Below are positions 9,291-63,757 of a stretch of 64,000 nucleotides of DNA, in pieces. The translations under genes and the position numbers were made by a program. The notes beneath the pieces were generated by a model that ran no database searches, was not told the DNA's origin, and saw only the letters and a list, made by a program, of their open reading frames with translations. Source of the DNA: a virus; the IMG/VR virus record IMGVR_UViG_3300027719_000003, positions 9,586 through 73,585 of that record. The stretch is one strand, 5' to 3'. Within the stretch, counting starts at the first letter, position 1; each line of letters begins with the position of its first letter.

Positions 9291-10242
9291 ATTTCAGATA
9301 CTCTTTAAGTATCGTTGGAACACTTTGACAAAGCGCCAACAAGAGATGCTATTGAAAAAGAAGCCAAAGCGTCGTTATTATCCTATCGCCATAGAGCATT
9401 CTTATGCGGAAAGTATATCGGCTTCTATGAAGATAGTGACAGCCTCAGTGCTGGGCAGGCTTGAGGGAAAGTTGGCAACATGGATGAAGATGAATGACCG
9501 TGGTGTCAGAGTAGATAGCCCCGATGATGAACTTGAAGCCATTCTAAAAGAAGTTGAAGAAGAGATAGCCGCTATGTTTACAACAGGGGCATCACTAGGC
9601 GCTGTGTTCGATTATGTCGAATCAGTTGCTAATCGTATCTTTGGTTTTGAAGAGATACAGTGGCAGTCACAGATAGAAGTTGTGTTGGGTATCCCATTGA
9701 AAACTGGTGCTCCGTGGTGGCCAGAGACGCAGAAACTATGGGTAAACGAAAATCACCGGCTGATTAAGAGTCTATCACAAGAATATATTACGAAGCTCAA
9801 TACACTATTGACTACAGGCTTTCAGTCAGGATGGTCATACGAAGAAATGGTTGGGGCTATTCAAAAGTTATCAGACAAGATTACTGGTTATCGCGCACGA
9901 CTCATAGCGCGTGATCAGGTTGGTAAGCTCCAGTATGCAATAACTAGGAACCAATTTGAGTCAATAGGTATGGATGGATATATCTGGTTGACTGCTCGTG
10001 ATGAGCGTGTGCGTGGAAATCCAAATGGAAGATACCCAAAGGCGATTCCTTCACATTGGATTATGGATGACAAGGTATGCAAGTTCAGTGATCCCCATGT
10101 GTTTTCCGAGACTGGTGACGAATGGTTGCCTCGATATGCGACAATGCCAGACGTACATCCGGGACAAGCCATTATGTGCAGGTGCACAAGCACTCCATAC
10201 TGGCTTCCGGTTCTTAGAGAAGCAATAGGGTCAAAGATATAG
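9268..10242 (+). CDS. Minor head morphogenesis protein (SPP1 gp7 / Mu gpF family)
   Basis: RARLIARDQ, YIWLTARDERVR, HPGQAIMCRC. Confidence 0.92.
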   Translation: MTPTSKNEFQILFKYRWNTLTKRQQEMLLKKKPKRRYYPIAIEHSYAESISASMKIVTASVLGRLEGKLATWMKMNDRGVRVDSPDDELEAILKEVEEEIAAMFTTGASLGAVFDYVESVANRIFGFEEIQWQSQIEVVLGIPLKTGAPWWPETQKLWVNENHRLIKSLSQEYITKLNTLLTTGFQSGWSYEEMVGAIQKLSDKITGYRARLIARDQVGKLQYAITRNQFESIGMDGYIWLTARDERVRGNPNGRYPKAIPSHWIMDDKVCKFSDPHVFSETGDEWLPRYATMPDVHPGQAIMCRCTSTPYWLPVLREAIGSKI

Positions 10243-30697: not shown

Positions 30698-32026
30698 CTA
30701 TTTCCCGTGACAATGTTTAAATTTCTTACCGCTAAGACAGGGGCAGGGCGCATTGCGATCAGCTTCCATCTTGATTCGCATGATCCGTAGCTTCTCCTCG
30801 GCCTTGAGGAATACAGCCTTCCACTGCTCACCTACCTGTTTCCACGTCCAGATTTCATTATAGGCACGTTCAGCTTTGGCACTAGCCTCTTCTGGGTGGT
30901 CATATATTTCCTCCAGTTTAATCGCCATATTATATATATCTACTGTAGGACGAAGGATGTTATTGTCCCCCGGCCCCATAAATGTAAATAAATTCTCTTC
31001 AGTGCCTGAGTCTATGAAGTACCCCCGTGCTTCATATTCACCGATCATTTCAGTGAGTGAAGTATTACGCGGGAATAGAAGAGGCTTCTTACACGCCGCG
31101 CCTTCAGAAAAGCTCAGGCCCCAACCCTCACCAACTGTCGTAGACACCACCACGTCACAAGCCCCATATATCTGATTGACTATCTCTATAGGATACCCCT
31201 GATTAGCCCCATAGGAACCGGGAGCAGGGCAAGCCCAATCCACATCCCACTTGAGGCCATAGTGTTCGGCGATCTCTACGAGGTTACCACCCACATCGTC
31301 CATTTGACACAGCATGAACAGGAACGAATCGGGGTGTTTCTCGTGAAACAATTTGAATCCGGCGAACGTGCGCCACAAATCCTTCCGTGGTTGGTTCCGG
31401 TTCACATTGAGTACAATGAATTTATCTTTGTGCGATGAGAAAAATTTATCACGGAATGACGTATCAGATGGCGGGAAGAAGATATCCTTATCGACACCGT
31501 GATAGATTACGTCCATATCCTTGAGCGTATCCATGATCTTCAGGCACTCGTTCTTGGCGTAGTTCGTATACGCCACCGGCACATCCATCTTGGCGACGAC
31601 ACCTTCTACCCACGACTTCTTCGGCGTACCGTCAATCGGGAAGTAGTGGATCATGGCGAACTTTTTCTCAAGCGGAAGCCCTTCCCTGACCTTGATAAGC
31701 GCGTCAATGAACGTCTGCACAATGAACGTATCCTGAATCATAAAGACCAGATCGAAGTGCCCTGTCCTCGCCATATCAACGAGAAGCTGACGCCCATAGA
31801 CATCCTTGTACCGCTCGTCATGCGTAAGAGCATTAGCGGCAGGATAGATGTCATAGGGGAACTTCACCCGGTCATACGGCGCACCAGAATGGTTAATGCC
31901 GACGAGAGTGAAGTCATACTTCCCTGTCTTATAGAGAACATTCAACAGATTCCTTGCTACCGTGGCGAACCCAGTCGCGGTAGTAGGAGAATCAGAGTAC
32001 CACAGAACCTTTAGCTTTTCACCCAC
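30698..32026 (-). CDS. GT4-family (GT-B) glycosyltransferase with C-terminal SEC-C zinc motif
   Basis: TGFATVA, IYHGVD, VNRNQPRKD, GEGWGLSFSEG; ends RNAPCPCLSGKKFKHCHGK. Confidence 0.9.
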   Translation of the reverse strand: MGEKLKVLWYSDSPTTATGFATVARNLLNVLYKTGKYDFTLVGINHSGAPYDRVKFPYDIYPAANALTHDERYKDVYGRQLLVDMARTGHFDLVFMIQDTFIVQTFIDALIKVREGLPLEKKFAMIHYFPIDGTPKKSWVEGVVAKMDVPVAYTNYAKNECLKIMDTLKDMDVIYHGVDKDIFFPPSDTSFRDKFFSSHKDKFIVLNVNRNQPRKDLWRTFAGFKLFHEKHPDSFLFMLCQMDDVGGNLVEIAEHYGLKWDVDWACPAPGSYGANQGYPIEIVNQIYGACDVVVSTTVGEGWGLSFSEGAACKKPLLFPRNTSLTEMIGEYEARGYFIDSGTEENLFTFMGPGDNNILRPTVDIYNMAIKLEEIYDHPEEASAKAERAYNEIWTWKQVGEQWKAVFLKAEEKLRIMRIKMEADRNAPCPCLSGKKFKHCHGK

Positions 32027-41973: not shown

Positions 41974-41995
41974 TCAGGTTAAATCTGTGTTAGCC
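41974..41995 (-). repeat. Truncated attC (R'' and L'' only) of cassette 3
   Basis: GGCTAAC-ACAG-ATTTAACCTGA; R'' is the exact complement of this cassette's start GTTAGCC. Confidence 0.65.
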
Positions 41996-42201
41996 ACCCC
42001 ATTGGAACTGCGTTTCAATCCCAACTGTTCCGGGTCTAGGTAAAACACGGGGCCACGAAAACCGCAAGCGCACCACACGTTTACTATTTGTCGCCCGTTT
42101 TCGTCCGTGTATCCTTCCGGCCCATGAAGCTCATGCCCACAATCTTTTGGAAGATGCGAAAACGGGCACTCGTACTGCGAATAATCGAAAATGTTTTTCA
42201 A
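41974..42201 (-). CDS. Cassette 3 gene: Cys/His-rich hypothetical protein (75 aa)
   Basis: GGAGG RBS before TTG 42201; reads into the half attC. Confidence 0.65.
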   Translation of the reverse strand: MKNIFDYSQYECPFSHLPKDCGHELHGPEGYTDENGRQIVNVWCACGFRGPVFYLDPEQLGLKRSSNGVANTDLT

Positions 42202-42271
42202 GTGTTCCTCCAATGGGGCTTGGGCAGTAATCGGTATAAGCGGCCCCAAGCGCTTATACCGTGGACGATCT

Positions 42272-42333
42272 GGCTAACATTTGCTTAACCTGCAAGGCCG
42301 TTAGGACTTGTCAGGTTCAAGCTGTTATTGGGT
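42272..42333 (-). repeat. attC site of cassette 2 (62 bp)
   Basis: ACCCAAT-AACA-GCTT(G)AACCTG(A)CAAGTCC-TAAC-GGCCTTG-CAGGTTAAGC-AAAT-GTTAGCC; two unpaired bases; R'' AAC changed to AAT. Confidence 0.82.
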
Positions 42334-42527
42334 GCTATGGGCGCTTCCGGTATATGCATCCAATGGGTGTATCCCTTAATAAGCATACACTCACGACGAA
42401 AATCATCATCCCAAGGCCCAGTGAAAGCGCCATGATCTGCCAGACGTTTTTTATGATGATCGTCCCATACGTCGAAACGCGTATTAAGCGGTGGAAGTTC
42501 TTCTGTGACGCTAATCCATCCAGACAT
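42285..42527 (-). CDS. Cassette 2 gene: DUF551-like phage protein (80 aa)
   Basis: AGGAGG RBS; WISVTEELP...THWMHIPEAP; reads through the attC. Confidence 0.8.
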   Translation of the reverse strand: MSGWISVTEELPPLNTRFDVWDDHHKKRLADHGAFTGPWDDDFRRECMLIKGYTHWMHIPEAPIAPNNSLNLTSPNGLAG

Positions 42528-42596
42528 AATTCCTCCTGTAATCTCGCCCGTAGCTTGGCGCGTGTCCGCGTAACTTGTTACGCGGCTAAAGCGTCC

Positions 42597-42646
42597 ATCC
42601 AACATTTGCTTAACCTGCTTTAGTCAGGTTGAAGCAGTTGTTAGGA
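42597..42646 (-). repeat. attC site of cassette 1 (50 bp, minimal)
   Basis: TCCTAAC-AACT-GCTT(C)AACCTG(A)C-TAAA-GCAGGTTAAGC-AAAT-GTTGGAT; the gene's TAA stop lies inside R''. Confidence 0.85.
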
Positions 42647-42934
42647 ACTATTGTATTTGTCACACAACGCTTTGATCTTTTCTGCGACTTCACGGAATCC
42701 ATTTTCCTTTCCGCCGTATTCGCGATCAATAATAACCTGAGCCATTTCCGGCGCAAGAGCAATCAAGCGCATGTTTATTTCGCGCTGTTCGTCGTCGCCG
42801 TATCCTGTATAATCGTCTCCGCATACGTCGAGCGAGTACGCCATTCCCGGAGCTTTATCTGCCTCAACAAACGGCGCTAGACCGTGCGAACTTTCACGAA
42901 TCTTCCACGGCCCTTTAGTCCACGGTGTTTTCAT
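42641..42934 (-). CDS. Cassette 1 gene: phage-type protein (TxGPW...NxRLIAxAPE family, 97 aa)
   Basis: AAAGGAAG RBS; MKTPWTKGPW...INMRLIALAPEM. Confidence 0.8.
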   Translation of the reverse strand: MKTPWTKGPWKIRESSHGLAPFVEADKAPGMAYSLDVCGDDYTGYGDDEQREINMRLIALAPEMAQVIIDREYGGKENGFREVAEKIKALCDKYNSS

Positions 42935-43058
42935 GCTCTTTCTTCCTTTCGCGGATTGTCCGCGTATTGGCGTAGCCGATATGCGGCTGTCCGTCGTCCT
43001 AACAAGTATTATACCTATCGGTATAACTACATCCAAAAATCCCTATGTTCTTGCCATA

Positions 43059-43087
43059 AGTATACCGCATCTCCCTGCAAAAGTCAA
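43059..43087 (-). promoter_or_regulatory. Sigma70-type promoter driving the cassette array (Pc-like position)
   Basis: TTGACT-17 bp-TATACT, about 55 bp upstream of the first GTT core. Confidence 0.8.
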
Positions 43088-43091
43088 GCAC

Positions 43092-43685
43092 TTATGGCAG
43101 TTCCTCCACCGATTTCACCATAGGAATTCCCACCCCTATAGCCACGGCTTCCTCCACCAAAGCACCCTTAGACTTATCATATCCCGGCAGAAGCAACACC
43201 CAGTCTGCATCCATCATGGCCCGAATATCTTCCCGCATATAATCCTGCCACGTCTTCCATTTAGAGACGATAGACAGATCAAATGGGCTTATTGCCGTGT
43301 ACCCCTTAGCCTCTACCGCCTTTACCGCTTCAGCGAACGCTTCACGATTGTAGTTCACTATCCCCGTAATAGGGCCGGATATATACACCCGCTTCCCATT
43401 CACATGGCCTTGGTGATCGAACCAGCCTATATAGTATAAACAGCATATAGCGTGGGCAATGTGGGGAAGACCAGACTCCCTATCGATGACTTGGCCCATA
43501 GCCCGCTTCCATAGATGCCGGAAGGCGGCGGCTATATAGCGTAGCTTGGCGTTGGGCACCTTCTTCCAATTATCGGGGGAATACTTCTTAGCCCCGAACG
43601 TGAGCACCTTGGCTACGTCCTCGTGCGGCTCTGCCGGGATGAGATCGTAGCGTAACTTGTCCTGATCGTATTTTACACCCTGCAT
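43092..43685 (-). CDS. dATP/dGTP diphosphohydrolase-like (DUF5664) fused to DUF4406
   Basis: GVKYDQDKLRYDLIP, FGAKKYSPDNW, ESGLPHIAHA; then VYISGPITG...SKGALVE. Confidence 0.82.
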   Translation of the reverse strand: MQGVKYDQDKLRYDLIPAEPHEDVAKVLTFGAKKYSPDNWKKVPNAKLRYIAAAFRHLWKRAMGQVIDRESGLPHIAHAICCLYYIGWFDHQGHVNGKRVYISGPITGIVNYNREAFAEAVKAVEAKGYTAISPFDLSIVSKWKTWQDYMREDIRAMMDADWVLLLPGYDKSKGALVEEAVAIGVGIPMVKSVEELP

Positions 43686-48807: not shown

Positions 48808-49575
48808 TTATGCTTCTTCTATCCGTTTCTTAGCGATCTCAAAGTAAGTATCGTCTTTTTCTATACCGATGAATCTTCTGTATAGGTTCTTGCAAGCTAC
48901 TCCTGTACTGCCCGAACCCATAGCATTGTCTAACACAATCTCGCCTTCAAGCGTGTAGGTCTTAATCAGGTATTCAAGAAGGGCTACTGGCTTTTGAGTT
49001 GGATGCACTTTTCCACGTGCATCCCTAGCAAAGTATATAAGTTGTTTGGCTAATAGCTTATCTGGTTCGTAATCTCTACCATGATAATTCTGGGTTTCAT
49101 CCATCACTGTCTCTGACCAAGAATCCCCCATCACATCTTTCACATTTTTAGTAATCTTACTGGGATTTTTAGAAAGATGCCTACGGGATACCCCTGCTGG
49201 ATTTATGGTTTTCTGTGAATTATACGTGGGCTGATGCGCATAAAACACACTTATAATTTCTATTATTTTTATGGGCATTTTATTACCAAAAAGAAAGTTT
49301 GCCCCTTTGTCTTTCTCCCAGTACCAGTCATAGCGGTAATCCTTTATATTACTCAGCCTCAAAGAACTTGAAAACGGCTCACTACCAAACAAAACTATAG
49401 CGCCATCGTTCTTAATGATTCTCTTATATTGCTCCCATAGTGGCTCAAACGGGATAACCGCGTCCCACTTACATTTTGTAGTGCCATAAGGAAGATCACA
49501 TAGAATCATATCGACGCTTTTATCTGCTATGCTTTGCATTTCAACAAGACAGTCACCATGAATTAGTGTCGCCAT
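48808..49575 (-). CDS. Orphan amino-DNA methyltransferase (N6A/N4C, beta class)
   Basis: ILCDLPYG motif IV, HPTQKP, LDNAMGSGSTG motif I. Confidence 0.92.
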   Translation of the reverse strand: MATLIHGDCLVEMQSIADKSVDMILCDLPYGTTKCKWDAVIPFEPLWEQYKRIIKNDGAIVLFGSEPFSSSLRLSNIKDYRYDWYWEKDKGANFLFGNKMPIKIIEIISVFYAHQPTYNSQKTINPAGVSRRHLSKNPSKITKNVKDVMGDSWSETVMDETQNYHGRDYEPDKLLAKQLIYFARDARGKVHPTQKPVALLEYLIKTYTLEGEIVLDNAMGSGSTGVACKNLYRRFIGIEKDDTYFEIAKKRIEEA

Positions 49576-57961: not shown

Positions 57962-58034
57962 AGCCATCGAGAGGAATCGAACCCCTAACCTTAACCTTAC
58001 AACGGGCACGCTCTACCATTAGAGCTACGATGGC
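57962..58034 (-). tRNA. tRNA-Thr(UGU), imperfect anticodon stem
   Basis: GCCATCG/CGATGGC acceptor, GCTC/GAGC D-arm, loop GTTGTAA, TTCGATT T-loop; no encoded CCA. Confidence 0.75.
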
Positions 58035-58044
58035 AATAAAGAAA

Positions 58045-58117
58045 TCAGGTCAGAAGGGATTGAATCTTCGCGTGTCTGCTCCAAGGGCAGATGCCTTACC
58101 AGCTTGGCTATGACCCG
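58045..58117 (-). tRNA. Atypical tRNA (anticodon UUG/Gln by position; Pro-like C1:G72, A73 acceptor)
   Basis: CGGGTCA/TGACCTG acceptor, TCTGC/GCAGA stem, loop CCTTGGA with C33. Confidence 0.65.
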
Positions 58118-63602: not shown

Positions 63603-63676
63603 TGGGAAGGGGAAGACTTGAACTTCCCACCCCGACTTTATAAGAATCGTGCTCTAACCAGATGAGCTACCTTCCC
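63603..63676 (-). tRNA. tRNA-Ile(UAU)
   Basis: GGGAAGG/CCTTCCC-A73, CGATT/AGTCG stem, loop CTTATAA, canonical D and T arms. Confidence 0.88.
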
Positions 63677-63685
63677 GTAGAAACA

Positions 63686-63757
63686 TAGGGCTACCCAGAG
63701 TCGAACTGGAGTATTCACCGTGAAAGGGTGACGGCTTAACCACTGGCCGATAGCCCC
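63686..63757 (-). tRNA. tRNA-Glu(UUC)
   Basis: GGGGCTA/TAGCCCT acceptor, TCACC/GGTGA stem, loop CTTTCAC, TTCGACT T-loop. Confidence 0.88.

Follow-up and report, generated by a model that had tools for sequence, protein, structure and literature searches.

The 64,000-nucleotide stretch of viral DNA analyzed here (positions 9,586 to 73,585 of IMG/VR record IMGVR_UViG_3300027719_000003; hereafter, the window) carries on its minus strand, between positions 43087 and 41934, a compact series of small genes separated by hairpin-forming repeats. The locus raises the question of whether a tailed phage can possess a genuine integron-type cassette array without encoding a recombinase, and which enzyme could then recombine it. 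The original prediction read the locus as a promoter, a G|TTAGGA core, three cassettes with two full attC sites and one half site, and the next promoter, and each of these elements was recovered in its place (Table 1). Our analysis indicates that the array is quite probably genuine, namely a cluster of attC sites lacking integron integrases (CALIN) with an attI-like head and a promoter-like site, in a tailed phage without a recombinase gene, and that it is likely recombined in trans by the integron integrase (IntI) of a host.

The repeats have the structure of attC sites

The 17-mer common to the two full sites, attC1 and attC2, is present in exactly two copies in the 64 kb and, with up to three mismatches allowed, nowhere else (0.19 matches expected; 4 of 100 shuffled sequences gave at least two). 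The AACCTG...CAGGTT hairpin core likewise occurs twice in the window against an expectation of 0.07, and none of 100 shuffles gave two copies. When the full sites were folded as single-stranded DNA, the bottom (+) strand of attC1 reached -11.0 kcal/mol (z -3.7) and that of attC2 -14.8 kcal/mol (z -4.7), with 0 of 200 shuffles folding as well, so the question raised with the prediction, whether these strands fold like attC, is answered in the affirmative for both. The fold proceeds from a paired R box through a small internal loop to an L box in which a G is bulged; after six more pairs a T bulges out as well, and the hairpin closes in a tip that varies. On the bottom strand, the unpaired bases are thus the G, within L'', and the T that follows after six pairs. 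At this distance from one another, both bulges appear in the attC2 fold, while the attC1 fold displays the G bulge and places the T at the loop edge. These are the two unpaired left-arm bases that had been described from the sequence, and both are kept in at least 90% of 83 distinct sites of the same family that we aligned (see below). The truncated half site alone forms no fold (z +1.3) and is complementary to the right half of attC2.

An attC site is recognized by a bottom-strand AAC in R' and by an extrahelical G in L'' together with a conserved T on the opposite arm, with a 6-bp stem between them; its central spacer is usually 5-6 nt and its length 57-141 bp (Nivina et al. 2016, PMC5027507, available to us in part). 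In attC1, the core TCCTAAC fits RYYYAAC at 6 of 7 positions and GTTGGAT fits GTTRRRY at all seven, and AAC and GTT are invariant or nearly so among the 83 aligned sites. The attC2 site is weaker than attC1, as its R'' ends in AAT rather than AAC and its bulged base is a G on the top strand. The window sites therefore have the structure that defines attC, their spacer of 4 nt excepted. Rfam at its gathering thresholds matched four transfer RNAs (tRNAs) in the window and nothing else.

The top strands (z -3.9 and -3.1 for attC1 and attC2) come close to the bottom strands in folding, which would suit hairpins that act as RNA or transcriptional signals, such as terminators or processing sites. However, the hairpins are not followed by a run of T, and no site at their position scored as terminator-like. 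We give almost no credence to this explanation or to the one that we group with it, an assembly chimera of host integron DNA, which is taken up with the metagenome contigs below.

A family of sites with the footprint of circular cassettes

The exact 17-mer was found in 82 stretches of IMG/VR contigs, many of which hold two to four copies a few hundred bases apart, and this single 17-mer scan places the site family in at least 75 other viral contigs, belonging to lineages of about 40-77 kb. About six single 17-mer matches without a left arm look like chance. Clusters of attC sites in phages have been reported as rare, with 17 CALINs in 10,705 phage genomes (Qi, Rajabal, Ghaly, Tetu and Gillings 2023, Front Microbiol 14:1091391, PMC9892861, available to us in part); here, one homogeneous family is present in about 75 viral contigs. 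Alignment of the 83 distinct sites revealed arms that are almost invariant, the right arm by design of the 17-mer query, and loops of 6-21 nt that are variable and self-pairing, with stems of their own that co-vary, in sites of 55-70 nt. In this alignment, 91.8% of cells were paired, compared with 26-41% when the partners were slid. A covariance model (R1) built from the aligned phage sites identified 161 sites at E<=1e-4 in 82 loci and, in the complete 73.6-kb genome of the window phage, only the two full sites. The cassettes that these sites delimit have a median length of 347 bp; their longest open reading frame (ORF) runs forward in 57 of 81 cases, and they encode 64 distinct products in 63 clusters.

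If circular cassettes are inserted by crossover at G|TT, the R'' of a cassette should complement the R' upstream of it and not the R' of its own site. This is the pattern that we observed. Across the five variable bases, R'' matched the R' of the preceding site at 5/5 in 46 and at 4/5 in 20 of 82 non-redundant adjacent pairs, whereas a 5/5 match to the site's own R' was found in only 7 of 157 sites, random pairs giving 5.1% (Mann-Whitney p 1e-20; the counts omit 6 of the 161 model matches, cut by locus ends). Covariation between R'' and R' of the same site was looked for in addition and none was detected, the values lying at shuffle level. A chromosomal integron array displays the same footprint (4.61 vs 2.92 and 2.85 of 7). 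Within the window, the R'' of cassette 1 complements the core at its own 5' end exactly over the 7-mer (4/5 variable bases when extended), that of cassette 3 exactly over 8 nt (5/5), and that of cassette 2 with two mismatches (3/5). The predicted complementarity of R'' to the core at the 5' end of the same cassette consequently holds both for the window, as two exact pairings and one with two mismatches, and for the 46 fully matching pairs of the family.

In T4-type phages, modules composed of a promoter and a stem-loop have been proposed to shuffle by homologous recombination. A comparable process here, in which cassettes would be shuffled only by homologous recombination between the repeats of about 50 nt and the leaders and no integron integrase would be involved, could draw on ample homology, given that the arms are nearly invariant and the leaders fall in families; indeed, a variable last cassette joined to a fixed truncated junction, as found in the close relatives described below, requires such an event. 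As the sole mechanism, however, it is very improbable, since it leaves unexplained the match of R'' to the preceding R' instead of its own, the stop of homology between relatives at the GTT of a non-repeated entry site, and the presence of the same boxes beside IntI in bacteria.

No integrase in the phage, and identical boxes beside IntI in Treponemataceae

The phage record is complete, with 73,585 bp and direct terminal repeats, and encodes a terminase, portal, protease, tape measure, DNA polymerase, helicases and ribonucleotide reductase. In this complete genome, no match to TIGR02249 (IntI), PF00589 or PF00239 was obtained, in agreement with the original reading of an array without an integrase. 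IntI likewise exceeded the cut-off in none of 50 other site-bearing viral records, 9 of which are at least 90% complete; two of the 50 gave weak matches of ordinary tyrosine recombinases.

In bacteria, represented by one genome per species, a stricter pattern retrieved 24 stretches, most of them short contigs from metagenome bins that span many phyla. Several are from spirochaetes, including the complete chromosome of a member of the Treponemataceae (G001), and IntI passed the curated TIGR02249 cut-off in three of five genomes tried and in none of 14 controls. In the G001 chromosome, R1 matches fill the 20 kb beside intI as well as regions 54 and 178 kb further, all on one strand, and no match lies on the other side of intI. 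The boxes (R'', L'', L' and R') and spacers of these sites are letter-for-letter those of the phage; only the loop is longer, giving sites of 115-128 nt. The array DNA has a G+C (GC) content of 33-35%, compared with 60% on the other side of intI, and the array would span some 188 kb, if continuous. On the chromosome coordinates (G001:C1 863000-1050900; loci L174, L176 and L177), sites are present in all three sampled regions, from about 863 kb to intI at 1,050,880, and a few are of short, phage-like length (e.g. L176 9587-9655).

More broadly, R1 matched 30 of 101 sampled Treponemataceae genomes, often in arrays of dozens, and in all five array-bearing genomes checked, an IntI above the cut-off stands at the array head and is transcribed toward the array, as is known of Treponema integrons (Wu et al. 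2013, PMC3607928, available to us in part). The proposed search for genomes that combine intI with this attC type found such genomes in the Treponemataceae. Because identical boxes adjoin IntI in Treponemataceae and because IntI1 recombines sites of the cultured phage TJE1 (see below), we infer that the window array is likely recombined in trans. As a separate observation, a Desulfosarcina metagenome genome contains a single site of the Treponemataceae/phage type (L173 8112-8181, G002:C3; 60.6 bits), about 12 kb from the intI of that genome and on its array side, which may represent a cassette that crossed phyla.

An attI-like entry element heads the array

Upstream of the first cassette, a promoter-like box and a 7-bp palindrome are followed by 4 nt and the G|TT crossover triplet. 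The same phage has a second cassette locus outside the window (L182, G000:C1, 1330-2221, minus strand), in which the 37-nt promoter/palindrome element recurs identically, followed by 4 nt, G|TT, one N6/N4 DNA methylase cassette and a truncated attC; the R'' of this cassette is the exact 8-nt complement of the cassette start. The second locus sits directly after a tRNA-like sequence.

A search for the 29-nt core of the entry element with up to six substitutions among the loci compared found it only in this phage (two copies) and in two close relatives, one of which (L084) preserves the palindrome through compensatory changes. The element that is common to the family is structural and not sequence-identical. 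To locate array heads generally, we used the exact complement of the first site's R'' upstream of each array, which yielded 24 distinct phage heads from 59 arrays, most consisting of a palindrome with co-varying arms, 4-5 bases and GTT. The same search found the first-cassette boundary just downstream of intI in six of six Treponemataceae integrons. The palindrome-4 nt-GTT layout is seen in the array heads of other phage lineages, of TJE1 and at the attI junctions of Treponemataceae. Compared with the 24 phage heads, the six host attI junctions had a mean identity of 8.1-10.3 of 22 positions, against 5.5 (standard deviation 0.43) for other GTT-anchored 22-mers, a value that 0 of 2000 draws reached; the closest pairs agreed at 16/22 and 15/22. 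This comparison used the unpruned set of 24 heads, about seven of which are probably not entry sites (L011, L046, L032, L051, L070 and both strands of L060). Judged by these sequence resemblances, the entry element may work as an attI site.

In the mechanism that we propose, the infected cell would express IntI, and single-stranded phage DNA would let the attC bottom strand fold. IntI would then cut between G and TT and either excise a cassette as a circle or insert one, with either another attC or the palindrome-plus-GTT entry site, 4 nt after TATAAT, as the place of insertion. A new cassette would land directly behind the promoter-like box, if this box is a working promoter. The attC1 and attC2 sites and the 37-nt entry element provide substrates with which such reactions could be assayed.

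Cassette turnover between close relatives

Two viral contigs, L083 and L084, are close relatives of the window phage, with a flank protein 97-98% identical to its counterpart and DNA about 90% identical outside the array. Homology to the window stops at 43001 (L083) and 42999 (L084) and resumes at 41993 and 41966, respectively. The array, which has G|TT and the truncated end as common boundaries in all three phages, consists of three cassettes in the window, two in L083 and seven in L084, the latter including genes for a P-loop kinase, a relative of DUF551 and an N6/N4 methylase. The number of cassettes in related phage contigs was accordingly found to vary, as had been suggested for examination, with boundaries at G|TT. 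These comparisons lend good support to a turnover of cassettes at G|TT within this lineage of phages; since phages that are about 90% identical hold 3, 2 and 7 cassettes at one entry point, the turnover is recent.

At the far end, all three arrays terminate in the same kind of truncated attC joined to the same promoter. Because the terminal attC is truncated, change at this end would be limited to ordinary recombination or deletion from one conserved left arm to another.

We further inspected four sequencing runs, as assembled contigs. Contigs break or diverge at 43001-43008, 42600-42644 and 42273-42302, and this breaking of public contigs at the repeats is what an assembly chimera of host integron DNA could also produce. 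Against a chimera, the locus stands at the same place in the two independently assembled relatives, the depth of the cassettes equals that of the flanks in run X1 (43.7-44.7), which may be the source sample, and both cargo and leaders are of phage type. In run X3, one contig joins 43008 to 42604 and so places cassette 2 directly behind the entry site; its depth is 3.1, and it may be an error. Joints of 42294-42306 to 42611-42623 were considered as excision products and rejected, as they derive from other attC sites of the sample and have short sides of 20-27 nt.

Leaders and cargo of the phage cassettes

Phage cassettes follow a common plan in which a leader of 60-80 nt begins with R' and GGAY; next come a hairpin of about 8 bp, which often reads like a small R''/R' pair, and a ribosome-binding site. 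These leaders (43003-42935, 42603-42528 and 42278-42202 in the window; 141 in L001-L084) fall in families, about 15-20 as estimated by eye, and one leader can precede unrelated genes. The leader of cassette 1 also stands ahead of five unrelated ORFs in other contigs and that of cassette 3 ahead of other ORFs in L009 and L014, while the leader of cassette 2 and the fourth cassette of L084 share 91.5% identity over 118 nt. The leader could contribute to messenger RNA stability, serve as a second hairpin for integrase binding, or be a trace of cassette formation. Modules of attC plus leader on unrelated genes offer a handle on the origin of cassettes, an open question for integrons.

Among the 62 cassette proteins scanned (the family scans omit 5 of the 63 cluster representatives, which are shorter than 45 residues), 12 Pfam families were matched, most proteins belong to no family, and PHROGs agree. 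The families comprise N6_N4 methylase (two members), MT-A70, D12, C-5 and Dam methylases, Mom, Lar, RtcB, AAA_33, DUF551 and two weaker families. The recognizable cargo, with five to six DNA methylases, Mom, Lar, RtcB and a P-loop kinase, is therefore mainly of the anti-restriction and tRNA repair kind, and the arrays would serve to exchange accessory genes, largely for counter-defence.

Host cassettes are AT-rich and have a short GC hairpin after R'. The differing leaders and GC content, together with the lack of common proteins in 101 kb, suggest that the phages have a cassette pool of their own with the same recognition boxes. Taken further, these observations allow a broader proposal, which we put forward only tentatively: many uncultured phages may possess integrase-less platforms, each with an attI homologue, a promoter and cassettes, that borrow host IntI and draw on a phage-specific pool in which a common chassis (a short attC and a leader family) carries unrelated genes, often for counter-defence (DNA methylases, Mom, Lar, RtcB, kinase), with boxes as in Treponemataceae integrons. 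If true, one enzyme would shuffle both the defence stores of the host and the counter-defence stores of the phage.

Relation to TJE1, Treponemataceae integrons and CALINs

A blastn search with a 4-kb query against 50,697 phage records returned nothing relevant; TJE1, a virulent, cultured Tetrasphaera phage, emerged only with a 101-nt query and E values of up to 10. TJE1 has three R1 matches of 44-59 bits. Phage arrays of this arrangement, including that of TJE1 with its sites as predicted by IntegronFinder/HattCI, were first reported in 2023, and IntI1 integrated five of six phage attC sites tried, among them TJE1_attC1 and attC2 into attI1 (PMC9892861, in its available part). TJE1 resembles the window phage in its attC family, its leader families, the lack of an integrase, a promoter-like site after the array and a palindrome-plus-GTT head, the latter annotated as a terminator in the TJE1 record. 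The first TJE1 cassette is DUF551-like by eye only and gave no tblastn match at E<=1e-5; the second encodes a methyltransferase and has the same leader as the second locus of the window phage. TJE1 differs in that its last attC is complete, whereas that of the window is truncated, and in that its array is foreign in composition (46.7% GC in a genome of 57.7%), unlike the array of the window. Outside the cassettes, the two phages are unrelated save for a glycosyltransferase and a methylase. Since TJE1 carries the same attC family, the window array is of a kind already published and not categorically new.

The available portion of that report draws neither a link from TJE1 to Treponemataceae nor a resemblance to attI. 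In the literature that we searched, we found no account of the Treponemataceae link, a conserved attI-like head, leader families, counter-defence cargo or the breadth of the family in uncultured phages, nor any paper on phages of spirochaetes or Treponema with attC sites; an apparent mention of phage in the available part of PMC3607928 was discarded, being the species name T. phagedenis.

The sedentary integrons of Treponema and other Treponemataceae (PMC3607928, in its available part) share with the phage arrays the footprint and an attI junction that resembles the entry site, and they have intI directed toward the array. They differ in that the array lies beside intI, the sites are mostly 115-128 nt (G001), the GC content is 33-35%, a GC hairpin follows R' and no cargo is shared with the sampled phage cassettes. 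A CALIN, as introduced with IntegronFinder (Cury et al. 2016, PMC4889954, available to us in part), has at least two attC sites in one orientation, with one gene per cassette and no integrase nearby. The window array conforms to this, with two full sites 325 bp apart, one truncated site and no intI on the replicon, and in the 73,585-bp genome no intI (TIGR02249) stands beside the array as it would in a complete integron. In the available text, the CALIN is defined without an attI or a promoter; the window array additionally has an attI-like head and a promoter-like site.

Several findings weigh against an array that is actively recombined by a host IntI. The R-L spacer is 4 nt in each arm and forms a 2x2 internal loop in the fold, short of the usual 5-6 nt. 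The search for a host through the 24 bacterial stretches revealed none related to the window outside the sites, and the attC type itself is no guide to the host, given that TJE1 grows on an actinobacterium. As to the excision that had been suggested as a target for read mining, the contigs of the four runs show no clean attC1 x attC2 excision joint. Moreover, with attC2 degenerate and the last site truncated, at most one excision reaction (attC1 x attC2) is left within the array. Exchange with host integrons also lacks a trace so far, as the 62 phage cassette proteins gave no tblastn match (E<=1e-5) in 101,300 nt of host arrays, a small sample. Finally, TJE1, from an actinobacterium and with a foreign array, shows that arrays of this family move between unrelated phages, so such arrays may sit, through phage-phage recombination, in phages whose hosts may lack IntI.

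An alternative is an array that has true attC sites yet is a static passenger, having arrived by phage-phage recombination in a phage whose present host has no IntI and being kept for useful genes expressed from the phage promoter. The growth of TJE1 on an actinobacterium with a foreign array of the same family, the state of attC2 and of the last attC in the window, and the failure to find the host all favor this explanation. We nonetheless consider it rather unlikely, because phages about 90% identical differ in cassette number at the same entry point, the GC content of the array matches that of the rest of the window phage, and the low-depth X3 contig has cassette 2 immediately after the entry site. 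Our preferred explanation remains that a host IntI recombines the array in trans: the conserved entry site, the turnover between near-identical phages and the boxes identical to those of Treponemataceae suggest that phages can use a host integron integrase to change their accessory genes.

Layout of the locus and neighboring features

The coordinates of the array and its flanks are collected in Table 1. The original statement that gene 1 stops inside R'' is correct, its TAA falling within that box, and needs to be supplemented for the other two genes: gene 2 continues across R'' and ends in L' of attC2, and gene 3 ends in L'' of the truncated site.

Table 1. Features of the cassette array and its flanks (window coordinates).
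Feature	Position	Strand	Basis or remark
Upstream flank gene, dATP/dGTP diphosphohydrolase-DUF4406 fusion	43092-43685		Pfam; its stop precedes the promoter-like site
Promoter-like site TTGACT-17-TATACT	43087-43059	-	Consensus scan, 10/12 positions; consensus match only
attI-like entry element	43044-43004	-	TTGGAT-17-TATAAT, palindrome and 4-nt spacer
Second box TTGGAT-17-TATAAT	43036-43008	-	Overlaps the 7-bp palindrome
Palindrome arms of the entry element, 7 bp	43026-43020 with 43015-43009	-	
Entry-element spacer ahead of the crossover, 4 nt	43007-43004	-	
Crossover triplet G|TT, array head	43003-43001	-	Homology to relatives stops here
GTTAGGA core, array head	43003-42997	-	Read in the sequence
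Cassette 1, 400 bp	43002-42603	-	68-nt leader with hairpin, gene 1, attC1
Gene 1, 97 residues, phrog_1273 (function not known)	42934-42641	-	PHROGs
attC1	42646-42597	-	Covariance model 42594-42649, 70.4 bits; bottom-strand fold
attC1 boxes	R'' 42646-42640; R' GTTGGAT 42603-42597	-	R'', 4-nt spacer, L'' with bulged C, 7-nt loop, L', 4-nt spacer, R'
Cassette 2, 325 bp	42602-42278	-	Leader, gene 2, attC2
Gene 2, DUF551	42527-42285	-	Pfam, E 6.5e-9
attC2	42333-42272	-	Covariance model 42269-42336, 57.4 bits; bottom-strand fold
Cassette 3, 304 bp	42277-41974	-	Leader with 11-bp hairpin, gene 3, truncated attC3
Gene 3, 75 residues	Probable TTG start 42201, stop 41974	-	No Pfam/PHROGs family
Truncated terminal attC	41996-41974	-	Consists of R'' GGCTAAC and L'' alone; joined to the next promoter
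Next promoter-like site TTGACT-17-TACACT	41962-41934	-	Consensus scan; homology to relatives resumes here

Extension of a gene into its own attC is frequent among the cassettes of the family. In the common methylase cassette (e.g. L084 8610-8636), about the last eight residues are encoded by R'' and L'', and the stop lies in the AACCTGA of L''.

Elsewhere in the window, the glycosyltransferase at 30800-32017 has 56-63% translated identity to TJE1 orf14. A methylase-like region at 48814-49567, beside which no attC was detected, has 38% translated identity to the TJE1 cassette methylase (48814-49026) and 70-77% DNA identity to two short attC-bearing contigs of metagenome bins (L143 and L155). 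The four tRNA genes identified by Rfam form two pairs on the minus strand, at 57962-58117 and 63603-63757.

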